This document shows positions 10,443-60,000 of a DNA stretch of 62,764 nt, one piece after another (within the stretch, counting starts at the first letter, position 1; each line of letters starts with the position of its first letter). The stretch is from a virus. Taxonomy: Duplodnaviria; Caudoviricetes. The translations under genes and the position numbers were made by a program. The stretch is taken from IMG/VR virus record IMGVR_UViG_3300020171_000027, positions 1 to 62,764 of that record; one strand, given 5' to 3'. The notes beneath the pieces are model-generated. The model saw nothing but the letters and a program-made list of their open reading frames with translations. It made no database searches and was not told the DNA's origin.

Positions 10443-10889
10443 TTACCCCGATGCTAAAATTGATTCAAGCCATTGTCTCCCAACAGGGCTTGGGTCATGT
10501 ATTACGCTAAAAGGATAAGTAATAGCGGTGCGCTCAGTCATTTGGATATTTTCTGGTCGTGATGGGTCCATAACCTGCTGAACATACTTAGTCGTTCTAC
10601 ATCTTGCTAATGCTTCGATATATTTTCGTTTTATTTTAGATTGAACGCCTCGAATTATTGGCTGATTTAGACCGTTCACCGTTGGTGTAAGAACATCTAA
10701 TGAACCATCTTCTGTGGTAGGATGTACCACTATTGTTAAACTATCATTCATAAAAGCTTCTAATTCTGCGGCTTTTACAAAGTTATCCTCAGCGACTTTT
10801 TCAATCGGTTCAGTTTCACCGATCTCAGATAAAGGAATTGATTTACCCTTTGGAAGGTTCTCGTTTACTATATCGGTTGTTCTGGACAT
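10443..10889 (-). CDS. Conserved head-region hypothetical protein
   Basis: 148 aa with an RBS (GGAG), between capsid accessory genes and the adaptor. Confidence 0.6.
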   Translation of the reverse strand: MSRTTDIVNENLPKGKSIPLSEIGETEPIEKVAEDNFVKAAELEAFMNDSLTIVVHPTTEDGSLDVLTPTVNGLNQPIIRGVQSKIKRKYIEALARCRTTKYVQQVMDPSRPENIQMTERTAITYPFSVIHDPSPVGRQWLESILASG

Positions 10890-10905
10890 AAATACTCCTT
10901 TTGTT

Positions 10906-10931
10906 TGGGAGAGGGTGTTACGCCCCCTCCC
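10906..10931 (-). terminator. GC-rich hairpin after the capsid accessory genes
   Basis: GGGAGGGGGCG-TAA-CACCCTCTCCC stem-loop on the minus strand. There is no U-tract, so it may be a stability hairpin rather than a terminator. Confidence 0.4.
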
Positions 10932-10942
10932 GTGTGTTTAAT

Positions 10943-11422
10943 TTAAGATGTCAAAGGGCTGACAGGGACACTCATCAAATCAACATAAGTCGCTGTTACA
11001 TCGGTTGCATTAAGCTCGGTTGTTCCGGCTGTAAAAGTAGCTGCATTCGCCAAAACTACCTTAATATACCCAATACAACAGGTGTCCACCGTAGGTGCTG
11101 GAAAATCCAGTACGTACTTTCCTGATGCAAGGTCTGTGGTAAGCCTTTCAGTACCCTTGACTGTACTTATTGTGTGAGATGAATCCAGACACACAAGATA
11201 AATACATGAGGTTAAGACTGCCTGTGTTGTAGCTGCTGTAAGAGCAAGAGCGTCGGCAGCATCGGCTTCGTGGTACATAACACCGTTTATAGCATAGTCC
11301 ACACCAGCCCCATTAGGCGCAGTTATTGACAGTGTTGCTTTATCAGTACCACCAATCGCAAGGGTAGCCTTTGACAAACAAAAAGTTCCACCTCTACTAA
11401 GTTCATTCAAATTTATTGTCAT
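10943..11422 (-). CDS. Putative capsid decoration/cement protein
   Basis: Thr/Ala-rich 159-aa protein with a strong RBS (AAGGAGA), downstream of the major capsid gene. Confidence 0.55.
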   Translation of the reverse strand: MTINLNELSRGGTFCLSKATLAIGGTDKATLSITAPNGAGVDYAINGVMYHEADAADALALTAATTQAVLTSCIYLVCLDSSHTISTVKGTERLTTDLASGKYVLDFPAPTVDTCCIGYIKVVLANAATFTAGTTELNATDVTATYVDLMSVPVSPLTS

Positions 11423-16661: not shown

Positions 16662-17138
16662 TTAATAACACGTCCCATGCTTCATATGTTTTGAAAGATG
16701 CATTGCGTGTTCTAACAACTTTTCTTCTGCTATAGAAAAAAGAGTTTTAGGATCATCTCTGGTTAATAGATTGTGCCCTTTCCATTCGCCGAAAGGAACC
16801 CATATATCAGTTTCCTTAAGGTCTTTGTGTATCCCAAAAGACCAATTATTTTCACACCATGAAAAACCCCGGCAACTACAATATAACACAACATCTTTCC
16901 CAAATAATTTAACTTTACGAGAATACTGATATAATATTGTGCATATATTATCTAACCATTCATTAGTATATACTATAGGCTCAATCGGTTTGGATTCTAT
17001 ATTAATATCTTCATATATAGCAAGTCTTTCGCCGTCTAACAATACCTTCTTTAAGGATGTAAGGCTTTCGTTAGCATCTTTTAGAGAACCTTCAATTTCG
17101 TTTATTTTTTCTTGAATACTTTCTTTTAACATAGCCAC
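16662..17138 (-). CDS. Hypothetical accessory protein
   Basis: 158 aa with AGGAG upstream, co-oriented with the late operon. Confidence 0.55.
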   Translation of the reverse strand: MAMLKESIQEKINEIEGSLKDANESLTSLKKVLLDGERLAIYEDINIESKPIEPIVYTNEWLDNICTILYQYSRKVKLFGKDVVLYCSCRGFSWCENNWSFGIHKDLKETDIWVPFGEWKGHNLLTRDDPKTLFSIAEEKLLEHAMHLSKHMKHGTCY

Positions 17139-32380: not shown

Positions 32381-33895
32381 TCATAATACTTGCTTTTGCC
32401 TACTCTTATGATAAGCAATAGCTCTATGTGTAAGATAGTTTTTAAAACCCTGATCAGGAATTATTGGAGCAACGTCTTTCATTCCTTTAGGCCAGCAACC
32501 CATTTTGGATTTATACAGATGAGAACTCCAGCCAGGTGCATAGTTTTTTAATCGGCGCTGATACTCGCACATGCCCATGAATTTGCGCTTTTCTTCCATT
32601 GTAAAGGTTTTTTTCTTGGTCTTGCCTCTGGTTATTTCCTGTAAATCGGCCTCTAAAACCTCAATTTTTTTACCATAGTTCTTGACTTCATACCCGCATC
32701 GAGGGCAAACTTTTCCCTTGAAAATATGCTGGCATTGATCACAGGCTAATGGCGGTTTTTCTTTTTTAGGTCGTTTCTTTTTCTTATAGGCTTGCTTGCC
32801 TTCTAATGTCCATTCGATATCATCCTCAATAAAACCTAATTCAGGGTTTAAAACACAATTCCCGTGGTCAATCACCATGCACTCAGTTTTTCCACTTTCA
32901 GGATGTGGTCTTAACCCCCTGCCTATACATTGCCGCCAGAGACCGACAGATTTCGTGCAACGAGCCATAATTATACAATTTGCTATAGGTGCATCTAAAA
33001 ACTCCTGAAACAAAGCAACATTAACAATCATTTGTACATCGCCATTATTAAACCTTCGTAAAACATCTGCTCTTTCTAAATCGTCAGAATGAGCATCGAG
33101 ATACTCTACCATAATCCCTTTTTTCTGGAATGAATCACATAAATATCGTCCATGCTTTCGATTGACTGCGAAACAAATTGTTTGGCGGTCGCTGGCCAGT
33201 CGAAACCAGTTCTCAACAATGTCTCCAACTAATTCAGAAGTATTCGACCGTTTTCCAAGCTCTTTAATATCCCAATCACCCCTTACTACTTTAACGCCTT
33301 TCATGTCTGGAGATGACCCGCCATAATATATACACCCAACAAGATGTCCTTCTTTAATTAACCGGCTTATTGGAACAACGTCCACAAGGTCATCATACAT
33401 CTCAGACATGGCAGCGTTTGAGCTTAAACACGGTGTTGCTGTTACTCCTATCGCTATTTTATCACTATACTTAGCCATAACCTCTTTAAAAACAGCACTC
33501 AACGACCTGTGACATTCATCCAGAAGCACCAGTGAAGCGTTTACATAGAATTGATTAAATTCTTCTGGTGCTAATTTCAACCGATTCCGATATGTCCATA
33601 CACTGCAAATTTGTATCGGCTTGTTGAAATCTGTCTCAACCCCGCTCATAATAATACCTGCTTCCATTCCATATTCTTCAAATTTCTCAGCGGTCTGAAA
33701 AGCAAGGTCTCTTCTATGCACAAGCAATAAAACCTTTCCTCCTTTTTCTACTGCCAATCTGCTTATTTCATAGAGTATAGCTGTTTTACCGAGTCCTGTC
33801 GAGCCAACCATTAGAACACGTTTATTCCCAGCCATAACAGAATTTCTGACAGCAGATATAAGCTCTTCTTGATAATCTCTTAAAATTAAACCCAA
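32381..33895 (-). CDS. Superfamily 2 DEAD/DEAH helicase with C-terminal Zn finger
   Basis: LRDYQ, TGLGKT, DECH, TAT, QCIGRGLR and CDQC...CPRC. Confidence 0.92.
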   Translation of the reverse strand: MGLILRDYQEELISAVRNSVMAGNKRVLMVGSTGLGKTAILYEISRLAVEKGGKVLLLVHRRDLAFQTAEKFEEYGMEAGIIMSGVETDFNKPIQICSVWTYRNRLKLAPEEFNQFYVNASLVLLDECHRSLSAVFKEVMAKYSDKIAIGVTATPCLSSNAAMSEMYDDLVDVVPISRLIKEGHLVGCIYYGGSSPDMKGVKVVRGDWDIKELGKRSNTSELVGDIVENWFRLASDRQTICFAVNRKHGRYLCDSFQKKGIMVEYLDAHSDDLERADVLRRFNNGDVQMIVNVALFQEFLDAPIANCIIMARCTKSVGLWRQCIGRGLRPHPESGKTECMVIDHGNCVLNPELGFIEDDIEWTLEGKQAYKKKKRPKKEKPPLACDQCQHIFKGKVCPRCGYEVKNYGKKIEVLEADLQEITRGKTKKKTFTMEEKRKFMGMCEYQRRLKNYAPGWSSHLYKSKMGCWPKGMKDVAPIIPDQGFKNYLTHRAIAYHKSRQKQVL

Positions 33896-34548
33896 TACTT
33901 TAATTCCCCTTGTTTTCTTGCTTTTTCGGCTTCTTTTATGGTATTAAAATATCCCAAACAAATCTGCTTATATTTTACTGTAATAGATGCCATGTATTTT
34001 TCAATTCGCTTGTGCCAACTAACACCATTAATTCCGGTTTTATTATTTTTCAATAATCTACGGTTTCTTACCTGATCTGTCATGGTTGCCCAAATACAAT
34101 TTTCTTTAAAATATCCTAAATTATTATCCTTGCGTTCAACTGTTAATTTTTTTGGGCATTTACCCATATCTTTTAAAAAGTTTTCAAAAATCAACCACCG
34201 GTCACAAACCTTAATGCCACGTCCTCCATACCGATAATAATTTTTATCTTTTATGTTATTACACCGCATAACCATGTGCATCCATGAATTATATGTACGT
34301 GTTTTACTCATACCATGTGTTTTATTATTTTCCCCCTGTTGCTTGGCTACTTCTTTCTGTAAACATCCACATGACATAGAGTTCCCACTACTTCGCCTTA
34401 AACTAATCCCTTTTACAACTCTAACTGTTCCACATTCGCAAAGACATTTCCAATATGTAGCTTTTTGTTTTCCACTCCCAGCATATTCGAGAACTGTCCA
34501 CCTACCAAACTTCTTACCCAACATCTCAATCTTAGCCACAATAATCAC
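33886..34548 (-). mobile_element. Free-standing HNH-AP2 homing endonuclease
   Basis: CLCECG...SCGC, YGGRGIKVCDRW, ERKDNNLGY...NC, and AP2 domain NKTGINGVSW...LGYF. Confidence 0.85.
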
Positions 34549-38979: not shown

Positions 38980-39210
38980 TCATGATTTCACCCTTATTTT
39001 CAGTAATGCCTGTGCTGGTATGTCGTAGGCTTTCATATATTTTAAGATTATTGCAGGGCTGATTGATCTTTGGTTATGAATATGCTTATATAAAGTGCTT
39101 GGAGTAACCTTGCTTTTTTTTGCCATTTGGGTGAGCGTAAGATTATTTTTCTTTTTGTATCGTGCTAAAATATTCAATTTATAATCTCCTTTCAAACGTA
39201 AGTTTATCAA
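38980..39210 (-). CDS. Cro/XRE-family HTH regulator
   Basis: LTLTQMAKKSKVTPSTLYKHIHNQRSIS, first gene of the leftward arm at a divergent promoter pair. Confidence 0.8.
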   Translation of the reverse strand: MINLRLKGDYKLNILARYKKKNNLTLTQMAKKSKVTPSTLYKHIHNQRSISPAIILKYMKAYDIPAQALLKIRVKS

Positions 39211-39300: not shown

Positions 39301-39809
39301 AGAAGAAACTAAACAATGGAGGTGAATATGGAAACAACAGGATTAAATTTTTTAGAAGCGCATACGGCATTGATCGAAAGTAAGTGCGAGAAGATTGAAG
39401 CCCAAAGGAATCCTGGAATTTATTACTCTTGCAAAGATTTTCTCGGCGAATGGAAATTAATAGGAGTTAAGCAAAAGATTGAGGATGTTGGATGGCTGGA
39501 AGGAGACTGTCCCAATAGGCAAGTGTGCAGGGCAAGACTTACTCAAAAAGCCCAAAATGAAGATGACTTTGGAGTGGGTTGAAAAATGAAATCAATAGCA
39601 ACCATAATATTTTTAACAGCACTAATGACCTCCGTGGTGCTGATTGTAATTAATATTTTATGTCCATGACTGTCGGGGCTGACTGCAAAAAATAGGGAAG
39701 GTTATGTAGTTTGGCAAGGGTCGCAGGAGGCCCCGATTAACAATATCAGGGCAAATTGGCATGTTAATCACTGGTTATAAAGATTTACTAATTAAAGGAG
39801 AATTTTAAA

Positions 39810-40019
39810 ATGTCTAATACATCAAGTTCATCGTCAGGTATAGGAGTATGCGGCTTGTTGGGTGTTGTATTTATTACGCTTAAACTTACAGGATATATTA
39901 CATGGTCTTGGTGGTTGGTTACTTTACCTTTTTGGGGAGGTATAGTTTTTGTATTATTTATTTTAGCCTGTCTCTTTGGTGGCGCATGTATTAGCTATTT
40001 TTGCCGTAAATCTTTATAA
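39810..40019 (+). CDS. Small two-TM phage membrane protein (cassette A1)
   Basis: SSSSGIG..GLLGVVFITLKLTGYITWSWWLVTLPFW, a motif common in phage genomes. RBS AAGGAG. Confidence 0.8.
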   Translation: MSNTSSSSSGIGVCGLLGVVFITLKLTGYITWSWWLVTLPFWGGIVFVLFILACLFGGACISYFCRKSL

Positions 40020-40103
40020 TACAGCACTGGAGACCGACCAGAGAAGGCTATGCGATTTGGCGTAATCATCACGTGGCGGCTCAGTTATATCGTTAGGTGA
40101 CTT

Positions 40104-40367
40104 ATGAGAAAATTAATAACTCTTGTTTCAAGACTAAATGTGTTACTCAGTAGTGAGTATGCTATTATTCGCAGTGATCATAAAGTAATGAGTTCAGAAG
40201 AATATAAAACACTTAGAAAACTTTGCAATGATATTAATTCAGAACTCGAACGTCACCTAACCCAGCAGTGCAGCGGACGGGAAATAGCGGAGGCATTTTG
40301 CTTAGATTGTGGCTTTGATTATGGTTCATCAAATTGTCAGGGCTGTGAACATTATTCCCGCCGCTGA
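40104..40367 (+). CDS. Hypothetical protein (cassette A2) reading through its attC-like site
   Basis: The C-terminal CLDC...CQGC is encoded in the attC loop, and the stop lies in the L' box. Confidence 0.55.
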   Translation: MRKLITLVSRLNVLLSSEYAIIRSDHKVMSSEEYKTLRKLCNDINSELERHLTQQCSGREIAEAFCLDCGFDYGSSNCQGCEHYSRR

Positions 40368-40592
40368 CTTACATCGTTATCTGCTTTGATGGGGGTGTAA
40401 GAAATAGCTGTAAATATATATTGTCTTTCCGGAAAGATTCTATATAGACAGCAAACCGTGACGAAAAAACATAGAGACGTTCTATGCAGATTTCAAATTG
40501 GGTTTCTTACATCTCACATGAGCGCAGATAACACACCACTTGAGCTAATGGAAGGGTATGTGATAAATGTCAAAGATTATTGGAGAGTTAGA

Positions 40593-40889
40593 ATGAAAAG
40601 AATATCAGACGAAAAATTAAACGAGTTGATTGATAACGAAGGCGAGTTATCATCAGGGGCTATTTCTATAATGGGTGTTTTACGATTAGCTCTTGACCTG
40701 CGAGATGCCCGTGCTACAAAAGAGATACCAGACCAGCTATATATATGCCCTGTTTGTAAAGATAGAATATTAAAACCAGGATGCTGTCATAATCCATATT
40801 GTCATGATCGGCAATATATCTATCCGCCAAAATACGGTATTTGCCATAAATGCGGTGAGGTTACAATATTTTGTAAGTGTGAGAAATGA
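40593..40889 (+). CDS. Cys-rich hypothetical protein
   Basis: GGAGAG RBS before the ATG at 40593. Motifs CPVC, CHNPYC and CHKC. Confidence 0.6.
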   Translation: MKRISDEKLNELIDNEGELSSGAISIMGVLRLALDLRDARATKEIPDQLYICPVCKDRILKPGCCHNPYCHDRQYIYPPKYGICHKCGEVTIFCKCEK

Positions 40890-41347
40890 AAGTCTATTTA
40901 CTTAAAACAATATCAGGCTTAATTCCTTCGGACGCTGAATCTGACGAATGGTTTCATAAGCAAAAAACAGGCTCTGTTATATCGGCTGAAGTTAAGCAAG
41001 TTCGGAACTATGAGTTCCATAAAAAACTGTTTGCATTGTTTAACCTCTCCTTCGGATATTGGGAACCTGGTGAGATTGACTCAAAATATAAGAATCCTGA
41101 GAAGAGTTTTGAACGGTTCAGGAAGGATTTAATAATTCTTGCAGGCTACTATAAAACAGAAATTAGATTAGATGGTTCGGTAAGGGTTGAAGCTGAATCA
41201 ATATCGTTTGCTTCAATGGATGCCAATACGTTTGAAAAACTCTATCAGAATGTTTTAACTGTAATAATGAAACGAATACCAGTGCTTGATAAAATGACTA
41301 AAGAAGAGATTGACGATTTGGTTAATAAATTTCTGGCCTTCGCATAA
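40886..41347 (+). CDS. DUF1367 family protein
   Basis: RNYEFHKKLFALF...FERFRKDLIILAGYY...SISFASMD. Confidence 0.85.
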   Translation: MKVYLLKTISGLIPSDAESDEWFHKQKTGSVISAEVKQVRNYEFHKKLFALFNLSFGYWEPGEIDSKYKNPEKSFERFRKDLIILAGYYKTEIRLDGSVRVEAESISFASMDANTFEKLYQNVLTVIMKRIPVLDKMTKEEIDDLVNKFLAFA

Positions 41348-41616
41348 TGCCACCACATGAAAAGATGAAAATATACCGGTCAGTAAAATACTTGAAATGG
41401 ATACGATCAAGACCTTGTATTATATGCAGGAGGCCGTCTCAGGCACACCACGTTCGACGATCTTATTGGGGGAGTGGTATAGGTATCAAACCTCACGACT
41501 ATGTTACGATACCGTTTTGTATTGAATGTCATTCGCCAGATACCGAAAAAGATTTGAATGTAGAGTTGATAATAATTAATTTACTTATGGAATACATAGA
41601 AGGGTTAAAGAAATGA
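41347..41616 (+). CDS. DUF968-like HNH-type Zn-finger protein
   Basis: YLKWIRSRPCIIC...AHH...GIGIKPHD...IPFCIECH. Confidence 0.8.
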   Translation: MPPHEKMKIYRSVKYLKWIRSRPCIICRRPSQAHHVRRSYWGSGIGIKPHDYVTIPFCIECHSPDTEKDLNVELIIINLLMEYIEGLKK

Positions 41617-41898
41617 AGCTCATAATAAAAAAAGATAAAAACCGATCGATATTTCACTGGATACCGTCCATTGTAACAATTAAGTTTCCCAAGGGTGAGT
41701 CGTTAATATTCACTTGGGGATATTATATTTTTGTTTTGAGGGATAAACAATGGAACTAACTAACGACAAACTTCAACTCGCATTTAACGCATGGCTACTG
41801 GACTACCGTTCGTTTGCCTGGGAGGGTTTAGAAGCAGAAGAACGACTGGTTTTAAGCGACTATCACTTTAATAAGTTTATGAAGGAGGTTGAGGAATT

Positions 41899-42147
41899 AT
41901 GAAACTAAATAAACCAAGGATTTCAATAAATGATGATTACGCCGTTCTAAGCACTAAAAATGCCAGTTTCTACTATGGTTATGAGGTTAAAATCAACGAA
42001 ATGTGCTGTTTTGAGGCAAAATTTAATGATGAAAAAATTACCATACCATTTGCAAAGCTGGGAGTTGAAGACGAATGGGATGTGGTTGAATGCCTTATGA
42101 TGGGCATTGGATTAATACTTGCTAAATATAAATTAAAGGAAACTTAA
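41899..42147 (+). CDS. Hypothetical protein
   Basis: GAGG RBS, 82 aa. Confidence 0.55.
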   Translation: MKLNKPRISINDDYAVLSTKNASFYYGYEVKINEMCCFEAKFNDEKITIPFAKLGVEDEWDVVECLMMGIGLILAKYKLKET

Positions 42148-42944
42148 AATGGCTAATTTTATACTTTATAGCGATGCAATAAAATATTGTGAGAGATATG
42201 GTTTTAAAGTTCCTGGCAATATCAGCCCTTTTGGTGTTGCCGAGGCCTTATTGCGTGCTTATAAAGCCGGCTCAAAAAAACATAATGTTAAGGCTGGTCG
42301 AATTCTGCCTGAATTTTGTCAAGATTGTAAAGACGAATTTGGGCATCCTGATAATTGTATTGGATGTGATCATGTTTAAACTTAACAATTTCCGTCTGTC
42401 AATGGTGATTTGTGGTTGTGTTGGGGTGGTGATATTGTGTTTGAGTTATTTATTTTAATTATGAAAAAGCCGCAAAAAATACCAGCGAGTATAGTTAGGA
42501 AATGCTTAAGCCATACTACGGAGGTGATGGAATGGAAAACATGGCAATAAATATTGTGATAGATGATTCCGATATGCCACATCATATCTTTGTTGAAATT
42601 GAAACGGATAACGGAGAGTCGATTAACATTGGAACTTGGAGCGGTAGTGATGATGGTTTGAAAAAAATACGAATTACAGCAGCAGATATCATTAATCATA
42701 TAAAAATATGATATATAGAAAAAAATGAAACAAATGAAACTCACGCCAAAAGAAAAAGCTGAGTTAAAAAGAATCAGCAAGTATTTTCTTGAAGCTACGG
42801 AAATTATAGATGATACAGAGTTGAGAGCAATGGTAAGTGTAAAGATATTATCACGGGTAAGTTGTTTAGCTGATAAGCTGGTTAAGAAATGATTAAGCCT
42901 AAAATAATACTTGACAGAAAAAACAACTTATGATAGGAAAAGAT

Positions 42945-43106
42945 ATGAGCATTAAAAAGCTAACCTGCAAAAAATGTAATTATTCTTGGTGGCCTCGTAC
43001 AGACAAGAAACCAAAGTTGTGTCCGGCATGTAAGAGCCGAAAATATGATGAAGATAAAAAAACGGAGGTAAAGCATGAAAGAAGAAATAGTAATAAACGC
43101 ACTTAG
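42945..43106 (+). CDS. 53-aa Zn-ribbon protein, probably leaderless
   Basis: MSIKKLTCKKCNYSWWPRTDKKPKLCPACKSRKY... Its ATG lies 5 nt after a TTGACA-17 bp-TAGGAA promoter (42911-42939). Below the ORF-track size cut-off. Confidence 0.7.
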   Translation: MSIKKLTCKKCNYSWWPRTDKKPKLCPACKSRKYDEDKKTEVKHERRNSNKRT

Positions 43107-43433
43107 AAAGGCACGGATATACATAAACACCGTGCAAACTTGGCATCGACTGCCGGTTACACAAAAACCGGACATGGATACGTTGCTGGACACGTGGACA
43201 GCAGGCGGGGAAGTTGAGGCTATTGACAGTGCGTTACAAGAGTTTGGGATTATAATATAGGAGGTGAAGGATGAAAATAACAATTAAAATAAGCATCACT
43301 GAGGCAAGAGACATCATCAAAGATCATGTTATACAACAAATCCCTATAAATTTTACAGACAAAGAAATATATGTGTCTGGTTCATATGGTGAGTTTACGG
43401 TTGAGATCACGGAAAAAGCTGAGGAGGTGACAG

Positions 43434-44399
43434 ATGGAATTAATCAGGTATAGTATAAACGAGGCAGAGATTGCAAAGATGTCAGATATTTACATGGGGC
43501 TTACCGTCAAAAGCCTTGACGATGAAGAAGGTCTCGCCGCAGTGCATTCAGCAAGGATGGTTATGGTAAAGCACCGGGTTGGAATTGATAAACTTCGTAA
43601 AAGTTCAAACGAAGAAGCACAGGCATTTATCAAGAACAACAACAATAACGCTAAGAAGTTACTTGCTTTGATTGAGCCGATTGAGAATCACCTAAAAAGT
43701 GAAGAGGGAAAGATCGAGGCTGAAAAGGCAAGGATTAAAGAAGAGGCTGATCGACTTGAAAAAGAAAAGATTCAGTCCCGGGTTGATGCCCTATTTGCCG
43801 TAAATGTTATTTTGCCTTTTATGGACGTGGCTATAATGACAGAGAAAGATTTTGAAAATTTGCGACAAAGATCAGAGGGAGCATTTTTTGCTGAAAAAGC
43901 CAGAATCGCAGAAGAGATCAAAGCCCGTGAAGAGGAAGAAGCCAAACTCGTTGCAGAGAGGGCTGAGATAGAGCGTATTCGTTCCGAGCAGGAAGCCATA
44001 GCAAGGGCACAGACAGAAAGAGAAGAGGCTTTAAAAGCGCAAGAGAAGGACATTGAAGATGCCAAACGTGCCGAAACTGCGAGAAAAGAACTTGAAGCTC
44101 TTGAAAAACGACTTGCCACAGAAGCTAAGATTCAGGCTGAAGCCGATGCCAAAGCAAAGATTGAAAGAGAAGCCAGAGAGAAAAAAGAAAAAGATGAGGC
44201 TGAAGCCGCTGAGAAAGCAAGGCAGTTAGAACTTGCCCCGGACAAAGAGAAGTTACTTTTGTTCGCTGATAAAATTCAAACCTTAACTGAAGGCAATCTT
44301 AGCTTAAAATCAAAAAAAGCCAAGAGAGTGTTCAGCGATACTTTAAAAGCTATTTTGGGAGCTGCTGAATATATCCGCATAGAAACAAAAAAGCTATAA
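43434..44399 (+). CDS. Long coiled-coil protein of the recombination module
   Basis: E/K/A/R-rich 321 aa ending in LAPDKEKL, upstream of ERF. Confidence 0.75.
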   Translation: MELIRYSINEAEIAKMSDIYMGLTVKSLDDEEGLAAVHSARMVMVKHRVGIDKLRKSSNEEAQAFIKNNNNNAKKLLALIEPIENHLKSEEGKIEAEKARIKEEADRLEKEKIQSRVDALFAVNVILPFMDVAIMTEKDFENLRQRSEGAFFAEKARIAEEIKAREEEEAKLVAERAEIERIRSEQEAIARAQTEREEALKAQEKDIEDAKRAETARKELEALEKRLATEAKIQAEADAKAKIEREAREKKEKDEAEAAEKARQLELAPDKEKLLLFADKIQTLTEGNLSLKSKKAKRVFSDTLKAILGAAEYIRIETKKL

Positions 44400-44414
44400 T
44401 GTTTATGGAGGTAA

Positions 44415-45221
44415 ATGATGACTGAAGAACTTACAAAAGAATTAAAGATAGTTGACAAGAGGGTAGGTTTTAATGAAGCCCAGAACCTTCCAACAGCTCC
44501 GACCGATGTTATCATGGCTGCCATACAAAAGGGATATACGCCTGAGTTTATTGAACGAATGATGTCGCTACAAGAAAGGTTTGAGGCGAATGAGGCCCGG
44601 AAGGCATATACTAAGTCAATGTCAAAGTTTAAGGCTAACCCTCCTGAAATTCTTAAAACCAAGCATGTTTCATATCAAAATAGCAAAGGGCAAACAGTAG
44701 AATGGGATCATGCAGTTCTCGGAGAAATTACAGAAGCAATCATTAAAGGTCTATCTGAATACGGATTTTATCACAGATGGGATACAGCCCAACCTGATAA
44801 TTCAAAAGTTGTAACCACATGTATAATCACACATGAACTTGGTCATAGCGAAAGCACTTCGATGTCAGGGCCACCCGACACAAGTGGGGGCAAAGACGCA
44901 TTAAAATCGGTATCATCCACAAATACTTTATTACAAAGGCTAACATTGCTTGCATTGACAGGTCTTGCAGCTAAAGGAATAGATAATGAGAGTCCTGGAG
45001 ATGATAAAATAAGTCTTCTCGAACAATGGGAGATTAAATTAGATGAGGCCGGAGCCGCTGCGAAGTCGGTAGATGAAATAGCAACTTGGTGGAAAAACAA
45101 TTCTTCTACTATCAAGAAAGAACTCTCAAAAGCTGATGCTGCAAAGATATATGAGAAGGTGAAGGTCTATAGTAAAAAGGTAGCTGTGCCTGAGAGGAAA
45201 CCCGGGTCTGATGATAATTAA
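44415..45221 (+). CDS. ERF-family single-strand annealing protein
   Basis: EANEARKAYTKSMSKF, VTTCIITHELGHSE, and SSTNTLLQRLTLLALTGLA. Confidence 0.85.
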   Translation: MMTEELTKELKIVDKRVGFNEAQNLPTAPTDVIMAAIQKGYTPEFIERMMSLQERFEANEARKAYTKSMSKFKANPPEILKTKHVSYQNSKGQTVEWDHAVLGEITEAIIKGLSEYGFYHRWDTAQPDNSKVVTTCIITHELGHSESTSMSGPPDTSGGKDALKSVSSTNTLLQRLTLLALTGLAAKGIDNESPGDDKISLLEQWEIKLDEAGAAAKSVDEIATWWKNNSSTIKKELSKADAAKIYEKVKVYSKKVAVPERKPGSDDN

Positions 45222-45233
45222 GTGGAGGTCTAA

Positions 45234-45845
45234 ATGTCAATTATAATTGATTGCATTCAGGGAGATGAGACTTGGAAAAAATGCAGACTCGGACGACCCA
45301 CCGCATCGAATTTTGGCCGAATATTGACAGCTACAGGAAAAGTATCTGAAAGCCGAACAGCATATATGATAGAGCTTGCGTGTGAGTTTGTATCAGGCAG
45401 AAGTGAAGAAAACTATACATCTTATAGAATGAAAGAAGGCAGCCGACTTGAAGAAGAATCGTGCCAAGTCTTTGCCATGAACCACGAAAACCTTGATGTC
45501 CGTAAAGTTGGGTTTGTTTTCAAAGATGAGCGTAAGCTTTGTGGATGTTCGCCGGATAGGTTGGTTGATGATAATGGAATTTTTGAAACGAAAGATGCAA
45601 AATTCACAATTCAATATGATAGACTTAAAAAAGGCACGATGGTTACACAACATATTCCACAAGTACAGGGTGAAATTTACTGTTGCGAAAGGGAGTATGG
45701 TTTTTTTCAAAGCTATTGTTCCGGGCTCCCAGAGTTATGCATCAAAGTTTACCGTGATGAAAAGTACATATCACAGCTCGGAGAGGAGATTGAGAAATTT
45801 AATTATGAGCTGGCAATCTTAGTAAACAAATTAAAGGCAATGTAA
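45234..45845 (+). CDS. YqaJ/lambda-exonuclease family protein
   Basis: QGDETWKKCRLGRPTAS, GCSPDRLV, ETK and PQVQG. Confidence 0.9.
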   Translation: MSIIIDCIQGDETWKKCRLGRPTASNFGRILTATGKVSESRTAYMIELACEFVSGRSEENYTSYRMKEGSRLEEESCQVFAMNHENLDVRKVGFVFKDERKLCGCSPDRLVDDNGIFETKDAKFTIQYDRLKKGTMVTQHIPQVQGEIYCCEREYGFFQSYCSGLPELCIKVYRDEKYISQLGEEIEKFNYELAILVNKLKAM

Positions 45846-45854
45846 GGAGAATAT

Positions 45855-46289
45855 ATGTCTGATTTAAATCAGTGTAACTTCATAGGCAGGGTTGGCAAAG
45901 ACCCTGAAATCAAATACACACAAGATGGAACAGCCATAGCTAACTTTTCAATAGCTTGTGGAGAGTCCTGGAAAGACAAGGCAGGCAATAAACAAGAAAA
46001 GACGAGTTGGGTTCGCTGCGTCGCTTGGCGTAAATTAGCTGAGATTATTGGTGAGTACGTCCACAAGGGTCAGCAGATTTTCGTATCCGGCAAATTCACC
46101 ACAAGAGAATGGGAGAAAGACGGAATTAAGCGATACATGAGCGAGATAGTTGTTAGCGATATGCAGATGTTAGGTAGCAAATCAGATTCACAAGCCAAGT
46201 CAAAGCCAGAGCCAGAGCAGAGCCAACAACCATCAGCGGATGAGCAGAAAGCATATGGTGCTGGAGACGACGATCAAATTCCCTTTTAA
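45855..46289 (+). CDS. ssb: Single-stranded DNA-binding protein
   Basis: NQCNFIGRVGKDPE OB fold and acidic DDDQIPF tail. Confidence 0.96.
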   Translation: MSDLNQCNFIGRVGKDPEIKYTQDGTAIANFSIACGESWKDKAGNKQEKTSWVRCVAWRKLAEIIGEYVHKGQQIFVSGKFTTREWEKDGIKRYMSEIVVSDMQMLGSKSDSQAKSKPEPEQSQQPSADEQKAYGAGDDDQIPF

Positions 46290-46631
46290 TATTTACAATA
46301 AATGCAAGAGGTTATGATTATGAACGATGATTATAAATATGAAACAGAGCGTTATGATGATATCAATTTAGATGTCGATGACTACACAACCAGAATAGTC
46401 AAATCATTCTATCAAATTGTAGGATTAGTAGATAATATAAATGTATATAAGCGAAGAGCTGAAGAATATCCTGCTGTTATTTCAAAAAAACACGCTAACG
46501 GAGTACAATCGTTTTTGGAGAATGTAGGAGATAACCTTCAGGATTATGAATCTTTATTTAACGAAATGGACGAATAATATCAGGGCAAATTGGCATGTTA
46601 ATTCATGGTTATACAACAAAAGGAGGTTACA

Positions 46632-47009
46632 ATGGATTTAACTGCAAAAAATGTGACAGACATCTTTATGGACTGCTTATTTAGAGATGGTGAAGATACA
46701 TCAAACCCTGTAATAGCCGAAGGAATTACGTCAAAGTTCGGTTTTCATAAGGAGCGACTAAAATCGCACATAGATGATATTGCAAACATGCTTTCTCAAT
46801 TACCGAAAGAGTTTCAAAAAGAGTCCGGTGGAGGAATGTCATTTTTAAACGCCTGTAATAATTTCAATGGTGAACAATGGACTGGACTACATGAAGTAAT
46901 GGAACAACTTTTTGCAGTTGGATTGGCATCTGGAAAGGCTCAGTGTTTAATGCCACGTAACATGTGGGCTGTCTTGCCTGGCGGAATGCCGTATTACGTT
47001 GTTGTATAA
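46632..47009 (+). CDS. Conserved phage hypothetical protein (cassette B1)
   Basis: AGGAGG RBS. Motifs GGGMSFLNAC, GEQWTG and LPGGMPYY. The stop TAA lies in the inverse core site. Confidence 0.8.
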   Translation: MDLTAKNVTDIFMDCLFRDGEDTSNPVIAEGITSKFGFHKERLKSHIDDIANMLSQLPKEFQKESGGGMSFLNACNNFNGEQWTGLHEVMEQLFAVGLASGKAQCLMPRNMWAVLPGGMPYYVVV

Positions 47010-47122
47010 CACACAGATGCAGCGGATTGAGGATTTATAACACACCACTGGAACCAACCAAAGAAGGCCGTGCCGTTTAGCATAGGCATCACTTGCCGCA
47101 ACTGATTACGATGTTATACTAC

Positions 47123-47416
47123 ATGAAATATAGAACACAGTACATAAAGAAAAACTGGAAATTGATAATACATTTATTGCTTGGGACATATTATTTCGGA
47201 GTAAACAATCAATGGTGGGTAGATTTTCCTTCCATGTTTGGAAAACCTTGGTATTTAAAAATTAATCCTTTCCAGATAAGGAGAAATTATAAAGGTATGG
47301 AATTCAGAGCAGTGGCCTGTTATTTTGTTGCAAAACCTTGGCTACTATTTCCTAAACATCCTAAGTATAACCAGCCGCTTGACTCTGACGGCAAAAAGCC
47401 GCCGCAGGTCAGCTAA
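47123..47416 (+). CDS. Hypothetical protein (cassette B2) reading through its attC-like site
   Basis: The C-terminus NQPLDSDGKKPPQVS is the translated attC palindrome. Confidence 0.55.
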   Translation: MKYRTQYIKKNWKLIIHLLLGTYYFGVNNQWWVDFPSMFGKPWYLKINPFQIRRNYKGMEFRAVACYFVAKPWLLFPKHPKYNQPLDSDGKKPPQVS

Positions 47417-47434
47417 ATCGTTAGGAGGCTTTAG

Positions 47435-48947: not shown

Positions 48948-49604
48948 TTATTTCCAATAAAGTTCTTCGGCTTCTTTTCTCGCTATTGCCGCCTCTTCTA
49001 ATGTGTTATAAAGACCTATATAGTATCTTTTATAATTTACTTTAATCTGTACACAATATTTTTTGTTTTTCTTAGCAAAATGGACTCCGCTTACACCAGT
49101 TTTGTTTTTTTTGCTTAATCTTTGATTGCGTCTTTGCGCTGTTCGAGTATCCCAGCAACAATTCTCTTTGAAATATCCCAGTTCGTTATTTTTTCTCTCA
49201 ATGGTCAAACATTCTTCTGATTTTTCTCCCATATCTTCAAGAAAATTCTCAAACTTTAACCAGCGATCACATATAGTAATTCCACGGCCACCATAATGAT
49301 AAAAATTTTTATCTTTTGGATTAGTACATCTTTGTTTTATGTGTCCCCACGCCTCATACGTAGCTGTTTTATGCATTCCGTGTTTTGTAATACTTTCTGT
49401 CCAAAGACAACCACAACTTTTAGTATTACCCCTAAAAAGATTTTTCTTTCCTACAATATGGGTATTCCCACAATCACAGATACATTCAAAATGTAACCTG
49501 CCTTTTATCTTACCAACATCTTTAATTACAGTAAGACGCCCGAACCTATCTCCAGTTTTTATGTTGACTTTTCTTCTGGGATTATTTATAGATACTTTAG
49601 TCAT
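48948..49604 (-). mobile_element. Free-standing HNH-AP2 homing endonuclease in the lysis block
   Basis: CICDCG...KSCGC, YGGRGITICDRW and an AP2 tail. AAGGAGG RBS before MTKV. Confidence 0.85.
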
Positions 49605-49736
49605 GGCAAATTCCTCCTTAATAGGATTTGTTATTGATGAGAAGCAGGCGAAGAACCGATCTTTGTCTGCTTCGTTATTTGTAATAAAGGTTTGTATAGA
49701 AGTCAACATATTATTTCACAAACTTTCTCGACCATT

Positions 49737-54068: not shown

Positions 54069-57000
54069 TTACTCCTTTTCTAAATATCGTTTTATTTTTT
54101 CAGTTCTTTGCTTTTCTAACCGTTGAATCATTTTACTTCTAATTTCTGTCTCTTCCATACTTTTTAATTTATTGATTCTTTTTCTATATATATTTAATCC
54201 ACCTTGAAACTTATTTAATCGTCTTAATTCAGCAAGTTCTTTTCTATACTCACGGCGAAACTCTGCTTTATCCTTGCTTGTTTCAAGAGCGTCATTGATT
54301 TCATTTAATTTAGCTTTTTTCTTTCTTAATTTATTATCCCAAAATTCTTCATCACTTCCAGTAAACTGGCTGATGGCAACAGGTGTAAACTGTTTCTTTA
54401 GCTTTTTAATTCCTTTGTATTCGTCAGTTGTTTTATATTGTTCTCCTTGGAGAATTAAGGTTAGATTAATACCCAATTTTTCAACAAACGAAGCTGTCCT
54501 GCCAGCCGTTAAAAACATACTTGGTTGTAATGCCTGAATTAAAGTAGTGGCCTCTCTGTATGCTTTGTTTATTATTTTACCAACAAAACTTTCATCGTCC
54601 TCATCCCTTACCATGCCAAATGTCAGCATAACAAAAGCTGTAATCTCAACAAGCCGATATAGTTCTACCATAGATTTTTTAAATTCTGCTTCACTTGGTT
54701 TTTGGAAAGTTAGTTTTTTGCCCAAATTACCAAGATTTTGTATTGTCGTTCTTAAAATTGGAATAGCCCATCTCTTATATTGAGTGTAAGCCCTTCCTTC
54801 TGGAGTTGCACCAATAACAGACTTCATCCCTCCAACCATTCTATACCGACCAAGTTCTGTTCTTAACGCAGCTAATTTTTCAGGAGATATTTCTCCTGCT
54901 TTAAATTCTTCTTTAGACAGAGATCCTAATAAAAAGGTTTTATTAGACCTTACAGAAGCATCCTTAAATAAAACAAAAATTCCCTCCATCAACCTATCGC
55001 CAACCTCTTTCGCTGGTTCTGCCAATTCTTCCCAAGGATTTTTTCCTATAAGATTGCGATATTTTTCTATAATTGATTTGCCTTGTTTTGTATTTTGTCT
55101 TAATTTACCAACAACAAATTTTCTTTTCCCAAGTAGCTGATATGTAGTTATTTGCTCTCCAACTTCAGTAGCAACACTTACAGGAATGTTTAACCCCAAA
55201 TCTCTTAAAGATGTAAACATTTTAATCGCTCTTAATGCCGCATCTATTTTTCCGTTTTGCTTTGCAATTAAGGTTATATGACGACCTTTTTGAGTATTGA
55301 TCCATTCTTTTACAAACTTGATTAAATTTCCATGCAATAATAATCCTTTTTTAGTCATACCTTTGGGCGTGAGTGCATGGGCATAAATGTCAATTAAAGG
55401 AGTTATTTCATCTAATGCCTGCTTCTTTTTAAATGTACGCATGTATGTTAAAAAGGCTTTTACAACATTTTCAGTTGGCTTCAGTTTCCCGGTTCTGTGC
55501 ATAGCAAATTTAAAAAACTTATCCATTGCTAAAATTTGACCAGTTTCTTTATCTAATATATTAAAAGCTTGTTCATCGAGCTTATAGGACTCAAACTGTT
55601 CTTTAACGGCTTTGATTATTCCATCTTCTTTGGTAGCTTCTAATATTCCCCTCCGGACATGAGTAAAATAGTTCTCCTTTCCCATATTCATTGCTTCTAT
55701 TTGCAATAAATAATCCCTGGCATCAGAGAAATGTCTGGTCATGTATTCAGCCATTGCCATTTCTGCTTCAGATAACCCAACCTCTGCTTTTTCATTAGCA
55801 GGAGCTTCCATAAACTTTCTAATATTTTTATGTTGAGGAACAAAAAAACCAACGCCCTTTAACTTTTTAGCTAAAGCGAAAATGTCTTTCTCTATTTTTA
55901 AATATTCGGCTTCTGAAACAAGCATTCTTTTTGCTGTTTCTTCAACCATCATTTTATAAAAGATATTCTTTTCAGCCAATCCGGTTTCGTATCTAAATCT
56001 ATCAAATTCCGATACTTTAATACTTTGTAGTTCTTTTACAGGAACTCCGAGCTTTTCAGACAATCGCTCTCTGGCTTCTCTCCAAGTCTTAATTCCTTTT
56101 AATTCTGTTCTATCAACTACTTCTAATTTTCTGACCGAAAGAAACTCATCACCCTTTTGGAATGGTTCTAAGGCTTCATCTAACTTTCTAATCTGCCCAA
56201 CGGTCATATTTTTTAGCGTTGGGAGCTTCATAGCCTTGCGTAAGTTTTCGATATTTAATTCTTTTTCTTGAATTTGCGACATTAATTCGTTCATGGCCTG
56301 GCGTCTTACTTCAACTTTTTCAGCTCTTAATCTTATGCCATCAATATATTGTTTAAATTCATAATTGCTCATAAAACGAATATCTTTACCAGAAATCTGT
56401 CTTAATTCTCTATCAGTTAGATTAAAATGATCTCTGGCTGCCCTGATAAACTCTCTGCGTCTTTTGAGAATTTCCTTTTCGGTTTTTATCTTTTCTAATT
56501 TAGTTTCAGCACTTTTTAGCTTGGCTTCATATCGGTTAAGAACTTTTATGTAATCTACACCATACTCATCTGCTTTTACCCTGCTGAATATCGGAGGCGT
56601 TACATCATCTATAGCGTCAACATTGTCCCTTGTAGCAAAAGCATATAAAACTCCATCCAGATATTCACGAAGCTCGATTATATCTTTAAAATATTTTGAG
56701 GAGCCAAAACCTTCTTTTGACATCTTATCAGATACACCTTTTAGCCAAGATATAACTGTTTTCATAAACCTCTTAAATACACCGGCATCATCTCTCGCAA
56801 AATATTTTAAGAAATCAGGGTCAGCTAAGGCATCGCCTGTAAAATCAGCAAGGAGTTCTGTTTCTATTTGATCACGTGGTAAAGAACTTTCTCCGGGTAA
56901 CATGGTTTTGTCAAAGGCTTCCCTAAATTTTTCAAACTCCACAAAATGCAATCTCGCCTTACTGATAAACGTATTATAGAGCGTTGAATTATCACTTTTG

Positions 57001-60000
57001 ATTTTGTGTAATAATTCATGGCCTGCAAGCTGGACGAATCCTTTGATAGCATTTGGGTCAATGAAAAGATTTCCTTTGTAAGTCTGTCCACCAATTCTTC
57101 TAAATTTTTCTTTTGTTGGGGTAACGGTAATAATTTTTGTTTTGAAAACGGATTCAAAAGCTCTGGCAACGCTTCTGGTAGCATCTGGGACATCTTTTTC
57201 GATGACATAGGCATTCTCCCATTCCTTCCCTAATTGTTTAGCAAGTTGAGTATTTAGGTCTCGTACTAATTTGTCTTGTTCAATGGCAGGCTTGGTAGCG
57301 TACTTAGGTTGTTCTTTTTGTGCTTTGTTCCAGATATCGATTATTTTTGATTCTTTTAATATAGCCTCTTCATTTAAAACAATCATTCCATCTGATGTAT
57401 AAATGCCATCTATCCCTTTATCTTCTATAGCTTCCCAAAAAATATCAAATAATTCTGGACTATCAAAAACTCCCGCTGAATCTACAATATCTTCAGAATC
57501 TAATTCTTCAGATAATTTTTGGGCTGTTTCTTCAATTTCTTCGCTTTGCCTATATGAATCTAATATCTCTTCATTTTCAGGATTTAATAATTGTTCTCTA
57601 AAAGCATCTTTTACTGAACTAATGTTTACAAAGTTAAATTTCCCTATAATATTCGGTACAAATAGATTTTTGCCATACTTGGAAATACTTTCCCTATCTT
57701 CTGCGAACATAGCATAATTAACATCTCTGAATGGACTTTCTGTGTTTGTTCTTCTAAAATATCCAAAACTATCAACAAACTCGTCAGCCGTCTTATACTT
57801 TCGTGCTTCTTGCTCGATAGTTTCTTTCAGCTCAATACTAAAACTCGTTCCCTCACCATCAGTAACAATCCAGTCTTCACGAGGTATGCCCTGAGCTTCG
57901 TAAGGCATGGTTTCTCTGCGTTCTTCTGCGGTTAGTTTTGCACGGGCGGACGTGTCTCTGGCTTCTATTTCACCGGCAAGGTTCATATAGGCTTCTGTTG
58001 CATTTTTAGGAAGTTTATTTTGACGCTGAATTTCTTCCATTGCAGAAACAACAGTAGCATAACCTGGATATTTTTCTTTAAGTCTGTTTTCTTCTACTTT
58101 TAATTGTGCATTTGTATAATCCTTATTATCTGCCAACCATTTATAGATTTCTTGCTCAACTGCTATCCCTTCTTTTGTTTTGTCGTAGTTATCAATGGCT
58201 TCTCTATAGCTTTCTATTAAAGCAGTATCTTTAAAGGCAGTTTTGAATGCCATTTCAGATGGTGATGAGCCACGAGCAAAGCCGGAGATTTCTTGGATGG
58301 CATGTTGGATTTCGTGGAGCAAGGTTTCTTTAAGCTCTTTCCCTTTTGTCATAAAACCACGAGGAAAAACTATCGAATTTGTTTCAGGCTCATATTCCCC
58401 TTTTGAATCTTCAATATAATCACTTCTGATTTTTATTTTACGTAATTCTGGATATGCTTTAAATAAAACCTTATGGTCTATCAAATCATCAAGTGTCTTA
58501 ATCTCTTTTGAGTTAATTTTGATATACGCAGGAGTTCTTTCAGTTTCTTTTATTTCTGCACCACTATCATCAATCTCCCACTTCCAAGTCTCTTCTTTCT
58601 CAACGCCTTTCAGCCATCCAGTTTCTTTCCATACCTCTTTCTCGCTCTTACCTTCCTTGAGCATTTCCTGAGCTCTAACAAGTGCGCCAGTAGGTGCGCC
58701 TATGGCTTTTTTGCCTGCCATTGCGTATCTTATATCGGGATTAGTTGGGTCAAACTCTGTGTTGAATATGGATTTTATTTGGGTAGGTTCAAAGGCTACA
58801 TAGGAAGTTCCACCAAATTCTGTATCTTTCACAATAATCCCATCATACCCTTGTTTTTTTATTTTTTCTATGTTTTTCCCAAGGCTCCAAAAATTTCCTT
58901 TCCATTTTTTAGGGTTTTGTAATGATAAATAAACAGGCATCCCTATATCTGTTGCTGTTTGTTCTGATATGTCTTGATCTGTAAACCAAAAACCAGCCTT
59001 AGCCATTTTTAAACTATTTATATCATCTGTATTTATTTCGGTTGTAAACCCAAGCATTTCTTTGTCAAATACTGTAAAATCTGTATCTGTCCAGTGTATA
59101 ACCATTAATGGCTCGCCCTTTTTATTAACAACCTTACTATCACCAAACCATTTTACAAACTTAGGATTATCTCGAATATTAACAACAGCCTTCTTTAAAG
59201 AGAAACTCACATCCTGAGCAAACTGATTAATGCCTGAAACCTCACCACCCATTTCTCTCTGAAAGATTGCACCAGATTCAAATTGTCTTGTGATGCCTCT
59301 CGAAGTAGTAGTAAACAAATTAACAAACGAGTCTATGAAATCAGCAATCTTATCAAGTATTGTTCTTATCGTGCCTTTGTATTTTGCTCGGTTCCTTACT
59401 TCTGTTTCCATGAAATACGCTTGGTCTTCTTCACCGCCTATGTTTTTTTCGTTCTGTGTCTTAAACTTTCCTTGCCTTACAAGTTGCCTTATCTTGAATT
59501 TAAGCACTCTTAACTCTTTTGGTGTAGCAAGACCTAACTTTCTAATAATATGCCAACCTTCGTGAGCTACCGTCCATTTATCGCCTATTCCTTTGACGAT
59601 CTCAATAGTATCATCCTCGAACTTGCCTGCAATTAACTCACCGTCAGCTCTCATCCGGCCACGTGCTGTCTCAAAGGCCAGCTTGTTTTCGCTTATGTGG
59701 GTTACACTTTTGACTTGGAAGCCGTAACCGGATTTGAGTTTTACCCAGATATTACCGTCTTTGGATAAACCGGATGGAGCTTTGAATATGTCTCGTACTT
59801 GTGATAGGTTTATTTCTGAGTCGGATATTCGTTGTTTGGTGGCATAGAAAGTGTCTTCCATTGGAGTAGTTGAGATAATTTTATCTTTATTAATAATCGC
59901 AACAGTAGTCCCTCTTCCCTCTGGTTCAACAAAACGACCGCCATCGTATCCAGCTTTTTTCAGGTTTTTTATAAAGGCAGGATCTTCAAAAGCTCCCTGT

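Follow-up and report, generated by a model that had tools for sequence, protein, structure and literature searches.

The virus record IMGVR_UViG_3300020171_000027 is a complete, circularly assembled phage genome of 62,764 bp (38% G+C, terminal direct repeat of 127 nucleotides (nt), rated 100% complete). The window, as the word is used here, is this whole stretch of DNA. Its rightward early operon contains two short arrays of integron-like gene cassettes, array A and array B, which sit downstream of a helix-turn-helix (HTH) regulator gene and flank the recombination genes (NinB, Erf, exonuclease, SSB) on either side. Each array opens with a copy of one 35-nt element that we take, from its sequence relatives, to be an integron attachment site, attI. 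The features of the two arrays are listed below (ORF, open reading frame).

39742..39776, plus strand: attI copy a (predicted); 35-nt AATATCAGGGCAAAT-N8-TAAT-N3-TGG|TT, crossover G39774/T39775
39775..40092, plus strand: cassette A1; ORF 39810-40019 for a 69-residue small membrane protein (phrog_1374, E 2.4e-20); weak E-type attC 40014-40098
40093..40376, plus strand: cassette A2; ORF 40104-40367 (87 residues), which reads into the attC
40255..40382, plus strand: attC of A2; 128 nt, R''-5 nt-L''(AGT[G]CAGCGGACGGG)...L'(CCCGCCGCTGACT)-6 nt-R'
40377..40592, plus strand: cassette A3; no ORF; attC decayed to the E-type left half 40526-40560
46576..46610, plus strand: attI copy b (predicted); 35-nt element, crossover G46608/T46609
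46609..47113, plus strand: cassette B1; ORF 46633-47009 (phrog_26039, E 7.7e-35); attC 47003-47119
47114..47420, plus strand: cassette B2; ORF 47123-47416 (97 residues), of a small family with the motif NWKLIIHLLL..FGVNNQW
47365..47426, plus strand: attC of B2; 62 nt, GTATAAC-CAGCC-GCT[T]GAC...GTCAGC-TAAATC-GTTAGGA, the R' core overlapping the ribosome-binding site of the next gene

We think it quite probable that this region is an integrase-less integron cassette platform housed in a phage, with two attI copies heading arrays of three and two cassettes.

Cassette ends

An earlier note on this DNA had described five units that open with a GTTA core and close with its reverse complement, and all ten arms lie where it placed them. 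The arms are perfectly reverse-complementary in A2 (10 nt), A3 (9 nt), B1 (12 nt) and B2 (8 nt); those of A1 match at 14 of 15 positions, with a T in place of C at the outermost one. Inverse cores in ...TAAC (TAAT for A1) and GTTA are present at the expected ends of all five units.

Short arms alone mean little, because unanchored perfect inverted repeats (at least 9 nt, 60-700 nt apart) occur at chance level, 197 genome-wide against 199.6 in shuffles. That repeats of 9-10 nt at this spacing are as common as in shuffled sequence favours an accidental origin, in which AT-rich DNA supplied short GTTA...TAAC inverted repeats that were singled out afterwards, and so do four other GTTA-anchored pairs (8-9 nt) located elsewhere in the genome. 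Against it, a partner of at least 8 nt is found at 8 of the genome's 240 plus-strand GTTA sites, and four of these eight pairs fall in the two regions of about 0.9 kb that hold the arrays, with A1 as a fifth, all inside 1.7 kb of the 62.8-kb genome; the 12-nt and 14-nt arms rank among its six longest. The model matches and comparative data given below cannot be accidental, and we regard chance as refuted, with a probability next to zero.

The same note had recognized the footprint of inserted circular cassettes, an R'' that matches the start of its own unit better than the downstream core, and this holds in all five units. Complementarity to the own start and to the downstream core, respectively, is 10 and 4 nt for A2, 9 and 4 for A3, 12 and 7 for B1, and 8 and 4 for B2; A1 is complementary to its own start over 14 nt after one outer mismatch. 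In another phage contig, G006, the corresponding values are 10/5, 8/4, 6/4, 9/2, 10/7 and 10/6. E1 and E3, the spacers that follow A1 and B1, are homologous to each other, and a partial copy stands behind A3. A third copy of the 12-mer that starts cassette B1, GTTATACAACAA, is found at 43328-43339 within ORF 43271-43453; similarity there extends over 17-18 nt if one indel is allowed, and no partner arm is close by.

attC sites

Reference sites. Real attCs were taken from the class 1 cassette arrays of R751 and eight other plasmids. The canonical layout, drawn from 18 real sites, is R''(7)-5 nt-L'' with an extra base after position 3, followed by L'-6 nt-R'(7). On direct reading A1 (ACT[G]GAG), A2 (AGT[G]CAG) and B2 (GCT[T]GAC) have exactly this layout; B1 is off by one base and A3 is without an L' partner.

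Covariance models. We made two models of our own, both excluding the window sites: R1 from 10 short real plasmid attCs, and R2 from 19 real sites. MAFFT misaligned long and short attCs together; the model was rebuilt from 10 short sites and then from model-aligned matches, and the R2 search of the window was run with filters off. R1 recovered eight long or divergent held-out real sites at 28-68 bits. It missed two, the qacE attC (141 nt) and the dfrA1 attC, so a model miss does not disprove an attC. The sole R1 match outside attCs in 145 kb of plasmid DNA scored 10.5 bits. In further controls, 74.7 kb of bacterial loci gave no match at E<=1, and 390 kb of other phage loci gave one match, which resembles another attC and is probably a true site.

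Matches in the window. The A2 site scores 30.8 bits with R1 and 32.4 bits with R2 (E 1.8e-6), and the B2 site 21.5 bits with R1 and 30.1 bits with R2 (E 8.3e-6). The A1 site is weak (R2, 13.8 bits, E 0.39) and ends exactly as predicted. All three matches have the correct strand and exact ends, and at the level of sequence the attC identity of the A2 and B2 sites is confirmed. The bulged palindrome that the earlier note gave as its example, 47365-47426, was recovered by R2 with identical ends. Its broader proposal, that attC-type palindromes lie between all the units, and the covariance-model search that it suggested (done here with our own plasmid-trained model) thus succeed in part: two sites are strong and a third weakly matched, but B1 is truncated, A3 is reduced to a left half, and both went unmatched. 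The B1 attC is cut off after ATGCAGCGGA and joined to the 3' remnant of an A1-like cassette with an E-type attC (E3); the A3 left half aligns with E1 and E3. The A2 L arms (CAGCGGACGG / CCGCCGCTGAC) are nearly identical to those in the attCs of the R751 dfrB3 cassette and of an ORF cassette at another locus (L090).

Folds. Bottom-strand folds of the window sites reach -14.3 (A2), -9.8 (B2), -6.4 (A1), -12.5 (B1) and -2.9 kcal/mol (A3), with z from -1.5 to +0.2, and those of real attC controls -16.6 to -22.9 kcal/mol, with z from -1.7 to -5.9. Here too the outcome is mixed: the B2 site folds into a bulged stem (13 bp, three single-base bulges, all on one arm), but the folds are weaker than those of real attCs. 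A separate RNA-structure or RNase III explanation was dropped, as intergenic folds on both strands are no stabler than shuffles.

Several side observations concern such sites. The R' core of several attCs (window 47420-47428, and in G006 and a further phage contig, G002) is GTTAGGAGG, so that the crossover site also serves as Shine-Dalgarno sequence for the gene that follows; in these same genomes cassettes open only 6-10 nt ahead of their start codons. A 43-nt attC-like mini-hairpin, GTCTAAC-AATAC-CTTC...AAGG-CTTTC-GTTAGCA (17034-17076, plus strand; R2, 17.1 bits, E 0.045), lies inside the minus-strand ORF 16662-17138, far from the arrays, and may be explained by chance or as a decayed single site. 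An attC-like site of 37.6 bits and 61% G+C was also seen in an unrelated 7.5-kb viral contig (L030, 221-323, minus strand).

The attI element

The stretch shared ahead of the two arrays (39739-39779 and 46573-46613) is 90% identical over 41 nt, and both copies end in TGG|TT with a cassette directly after. The earlier note had left the element uninterpreted. We assign it as attI because copies in bacterial genomes and in one metagenome contig sit between a divergent integron integrase gene and the first cassette. In that metagenome contig, L139, a divergent gene 77 nt away encodes a full-length integron integrase (TIGR02249, 448.5 bits, cut-off 265); the first cassette begins at the element's G|TT, and over 10 nt the R'' of its attC matches the start of this same cassette. 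Bacterial locus L162 has an intact divergent integron integrase gene (TIGR02249, 450.4 bits) at a distance of about 180 nt from the element, and the first cassette again starts at G|TT.

The element occurs twice in each of the phage contigs G002 and G006, which have 9 and 10 attC matches of at least 20 bits and almost no proteins in common with the window; cassettes follow all six phage copies. A metagenome scan found it at 27 further loci. Of 23 attC matches in these loci, 22 are on the strand of the element and 21 downstream of it; 13 of the 27 loci have one or more such matches. Bacterial genomes were scanned with up to 1 mismatch allowed (a reversed-pattern control gave 0): the element is present in 1 of 401 genomes sampled from a gammaproteobacterial class, in 6 of 401 from the phylum of a Desulfobacteraceae metagenome-assembled genome (MAG), and in 2 of 401 from the phylum of a Nitrospirota MAG. 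An integrase homologue adjoins the element in four of ten bacterial loci (L162 intact, L159 interrupted, L166 and L161 fragments), and attCs lie downstream in five of the ten. The element was not found in five genomes with B2 homologues, and the exact 26-nt attI pattern and the E-element pattern gave nothing in IMG/VR.

The element could instead act in early transcription, as a promoter or operator, and the hairpins could be terminators or RNA structures; the units would then be moron- or PeSL-like modules shuffled by the phage Erf and exonuclease at short conserved sequences. T4-type PeSL cassettes and lambdoid morons are small early accessory genes with a conserved element in front and a hairpin behind, and they vary among relatives; their movement is attributed to homologous or illegitimate recombination, and they lack attC structure. 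The partly palindromic element adjoins HTH regulator genes and matches a sigma-70 extended -10 promoter, on the minus (opposite) strand only; Erf, exonuclease, SSB and NinB are encoded between the arrays, and the fold z-scores are unremarkable, all of which suits phage regulatory modules. Yet a scan found no terminator-like site at any hairpin, and no bracket of own promoter and factor-independent terminator was found. Unlike PeSL cassettes or morons, the window units have hairpins with attC scores and site-specific junctions. The sites are recovered, exact ends included, by a model that had only plasmid attCs for training, bacterial copies of the element occupy the attI position beside integron integrase genes, and the B1 junctions described below are homologous no further than G|TT, a result that homologous recombination could not give. 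We consider regulatory modules a very improbable explanation.

Other mobile systems were rejected as well: a transposon with terminal inverted repeats, as the arms differ from unit to unit; Xer/dif modules, which gave no XerD-arm match (by eye, against the dif consensus); and IS200/IS605-type ends.

No integrase in the phage

The earlier note had seen no tyrosine recombinase in this complete genome, and profile searches agree: neither TIGR02249 (integron integrase) nor PF00589 has a match anywhere in the 62,764-bp record. In 14 control genomes both profiles matched every time, with the cut-off passed in 14 of 14 by PF00589 and in 0 of 14 by TIGR02249. The window thus lacks the integron integrase that a complete integron contains.

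At contig positions 36866-37954 and 43890-44918, the attC-rich partial phage G002 (L106-L108) encodes a tyrosine recombinase, which is Xer-like and not an integron integrase (TIGR02249 25 bits, cut-off 265), and a reverse transcriptase of the diversity-generating-retroelement type, which adjoins a tail protein.

Relatives and mobility

Alignment of relatives, proposed in the earlier note as a check for breakpoints at G/TT, bore that prediction out. Two metagenome contigs (L140, L144) share with the window the flank upstream of attI copy a, and two (L143, L145) that of copy b. All four diverge from the window after TGG|TT and carry other cassettes; in L143, homology to the window picks up again at the last R' of array B. 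L144, a related metagenomic phage contig, has cassette B1 (85% identity over 429 nt) in the interior of its array, where it is preceded by the 3' half of an E-type attC (GCTCAGTTATATCG|TT), whereas in the window it is preceded by attI (TTCATGG|TT). The homology starts exactly at G|TT, the upstream flanks having only the G in common, and the L144 copy has an intact attC of 56 nt where that of the window is truncated. Contigs from groundwater sequencing runs include many E-type attC variants and have loose ends just after GTTA, at 40095 and 47423; these contigs may stem from other genomes, and uncovered stretches and short-sided joints were not counted as evidence.

These data bear on whether the arrays are a passive relic, a bacterial integron block of attI and cassettes once captured by illegitimate or homologous recombination, then duplicated and now only decaying. 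Three of the five attCs are weak, truncated or halved and the right flanks of the two arrays (E1, E3) are homologous, as a relic would have it, and Qi et al. (PMC9892861) discuss such capture for Vibrio prophages. However, the attI copies are at separate loci with unrelated first cassettes, and relatives with the same upstream flanks hold other cassettes. B1 follows attI in one genome and attC in the other, joined exactly at G|TT with no upstream homology. Three phages with almost no common proteins all have arrays on this attI, and the cargo families are of phage type. A passive relic is therefore, in our judgement, unlikely.

Two other observations come from G002. At 10844-11145 the same 28 nt (GGAGGTGTAAGATGGATTGGTTAGAGAA) stand behind two successive attCs, and ORFs of 61 and 148 residues have a common start; this resembles a cassette insertion with a duplicated gene 5' end. 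A truncated B2 homologue (L096, 2896-3205) lies between direct repeats (TTTAATTTTGCTTAAGAGG, TTAGCTTTTCARGCTGAAGAA) that are not attCs.

Proposed mechanism

Under the integron-platform explanation, each small single-gene cassette would begin at the TT of the G|TT crossover and end in its attC. When the phage replicates in a host with an integron of matching class, the integrase of the host could act on phage DNA and join the folded bottom strand of a circular cassette's attC to a phage attI, giving insertion, while recombination between attCs would excise or move cassettes. New genes would land first after attI, so that the early accessory genes of the phage are swapped. An integrase supplied in trans by the host, as the earlier note had proposed, is made much more plausible because both arrays begin at an element found beside bacterial integron integrases and because related contigs have different cassettes at these junctions. 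We infer that recombination by the host integrase is still ongoing and that attI also provides expression. Part of the array is probably frozen, because three of the five attCs are weak or decayed.

Several observations weigh against this explanation. No more than two of the five sites reach scores typical of real attCs, and A1 is marginal; the B1 (47003-47119) and A3 (40526-40592) sites have no R2 match at E<=10, and the window folds are weaker than real controls (B2 z -1.5, A2 z -0.5). Some cores, ACCTAAC and GTTAGGT, fit GTTRRRY/RYYYAAC, but several (GTATAAC, GTTATCT, GTTAGGA) depart from it; AT-rich cores like these are also found in cassettes beside the real integrase genes of L139 and L162. 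It is unusual that the A2 and B2 ORFs run into their attCs and that a zinc-ribbon-like tail of A2 is encoded by the centre of the site. The cargo families are typical of phages and were not met as cassettes elsewhere. The element is partly palindromic and stands beside HTH regulators in the window and in G006, and may also, or instead, serve the phage as operator or promoter; a promoter role is compatible with the integron-platform explanation. Finally, an extra motif, GGCAAATTTGCCC, upstream of attI in L139 and L162, is missing from the phage copies.

That palindromic motif lies at L139 2040-2075 and L162 1455-1490, about 30 nt upstream of attI at the two loci with an intact integrase gene, and may be an additional integrase-binding or regulatory site.

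We advance tentatively, at slightly below even probability, a wider proposal: that unrelated groundwater phages have co-opted the attI of a widespread environmental integron class (found in Desulfobacterota, Nitrospirota and Gammaproteobacteria) at several early-operon positions, exploiting the host integrase and a shared cassette pool that includes phage genes. If so, the integron cassette pool would be common to bacteria and viruses and would allow fast exchange of early, possibly counter-defence, genes.

Comparison with known systems

Integrons are generally seen as bacterial devices, and phage attC clusters are a recent and infrequent find. The statement of the earlier note that integron elements are rare or absent in phages is right as to frequency; absence is contradicted, since phage attC clusters were already published. 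According to Qi et al. 2023 (PMC9892861), integron parts were found in 21 of 10,705 phage genomes, including 17 integrase-less attC clusters (CALINs), and one prophage has attI-headed arrays with its own integrase; IntI1 recombined five of six phage-borne attCs in vivo.

Like those phage CALINs (PMC9892861), the window has small same-strand attC cassettes and no integron integrase in the phage genome; the CALIN sites are recognized by a bacterial integrase given in trans. Unlike them, the window arrays are headed by attI, in two copies, and two phage contigs unrelated to the window have this attI too, as do many contigs from metagenomes. Integrase genes that match it were found only in bacterial or metagenome contigs. 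A CALIN is defined as at least two attC sites close together with no intI nearby, the IntegronFinder distance being 4 kb. Array A has two matches at E<=1, one of 13.8 and one of 32.4 bits, with a separation of 157 nt, and array B has one. The rule of Qi et al. (two sites of at least 20 bits within 3 kb; PMC9892861) might not call the window, as the two strong sites, A2 and B2, are 7 kb apart.

As described in 2023, the M16-3 prophage likewise has an attI heading an integrase-less cassette array in a phage-derived element. It is an inactive prophage that also has an intact integrase and a different attI class, whereas the window is a complete phage without tyrosine recombinase. Insertion at secondary sites offers another comparison. 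Loot et al. (10.1101/2022.09.11.507474) report that the integrase inserts cassettes outside integrons at genomic attG, which are G|TT-type sites with the consensus GWT, and that small integrase-less clusters or single attCs (SALINs) may arise in this way. The docking site in the window is not a degenerate GWT like attG: it is a conserved element, 35 nt long, that has the same sequence as the attI of a real class and is used repeatedly.

With a canonical integron (intI, attI, Pc promoter, cassettes) the window shares attI, attC geometry, G|TT junctions, cassette orientation and the own-start footprint. It differs in having no intI, very short arrays, phage-type cargo, AT-rich cores, and decay in three of five attCs. 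The integrase-less form anchored on attI at several loci may be new; a literature search outside supplementary tables returned no report of integrase-less phages with several attI copies. It would be a more organized form than those reported so far, seen in the window, two further phage contigs and many from metagenomes: phage early operons contain the docking site of a genuine integron class but not the integrase. If a host integrase serves these sites, early accessory genes could be exchanged site-specifically at no coding cost to the phage, and cassettes could travel between hosts in virions with a ready docking site. A defined trio of attI, attC and integrase from uncultured bacteria is now at hand.

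Cargo and genome context

The earlier note judged the A1 and B1 cargo to look like phage genes, and both have PHROG matches (phrog_1374 and phrog_26039). Homologues of B1 are present in 19 phage records; those of A1 in Aeromonas and Acinetobacter phages are tightly packed and without cassette flanks. The A2 ORF has a C-terminal CxxC...CxxC stretch encoded within its attC, and the last 15 or so residues of the B2 protein are likewise encoded by its attC. Ten B2 homologues were collected, most ending near R''. B2 homologues in 4 viral contigs and at 10 loci from bacteria or MAGs have no attC match beside them: the best score in viral contigs L095, L097 and L098 does not exceed 9.3 bits, and the 10 loci gave none at E<=1. 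Cassette A3 has no ORF of at least 30 residues in 40377-40525 and contains a perfect 12-nt palindrome, CTTTCCGGAAAG; a small RNA, operator or promoter could be inside.

One neighbouring gene is given for context.

38980..39210, minus strand: HTH regulator of XRE/Cro-CI type (Pfam HTH_3, E 1.4e-8), upstream of array A

This regulator is 38% identical to the HTH gene between two divergent attI copies of G006. The early operon encodes NinB, an HNH-like protein, Erf, a YqaJ exonuclease and SSB, and the phage also encodes a terminase, a portal protein, a major head protein, a primase, a helicase and a protein of 2,897 residues. Judged by terminase, Pseudomonas F116-like phages are the closest isolates, but their 51% identity is too low for naming a host; one relative at 89% is on a 6.7-kb contig without an attC match. 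The exonuclease has no relative in IMG/VR. Megablast and blastn searches of the region against phage records gave short matches only, all inside gene A1, and no Rfam family reached its gathering score within the window.

Three observations concern the rest of the genome. The 2,897-residue ORF (54069-62762, minus strand), which has weak PHROG matches only, to families without an assigned function, enters the 127-nt terminal repeat (1-127 / 62638-62764), and the true protein may be longer. Two paralogous HNH endonuclease genes (phrog_374; 33886-34548 and 48948-49709, both minus strand), possibly homing endonucleases, have a 118-nt stretch in common at 73% identity (repeat D8). Long GGT/GGC-rich repeat runs (families D1-D3) at 5800-6400 (minus strand) lie in a tail-fibre-like gene, where they encode glycine-rich repeats.

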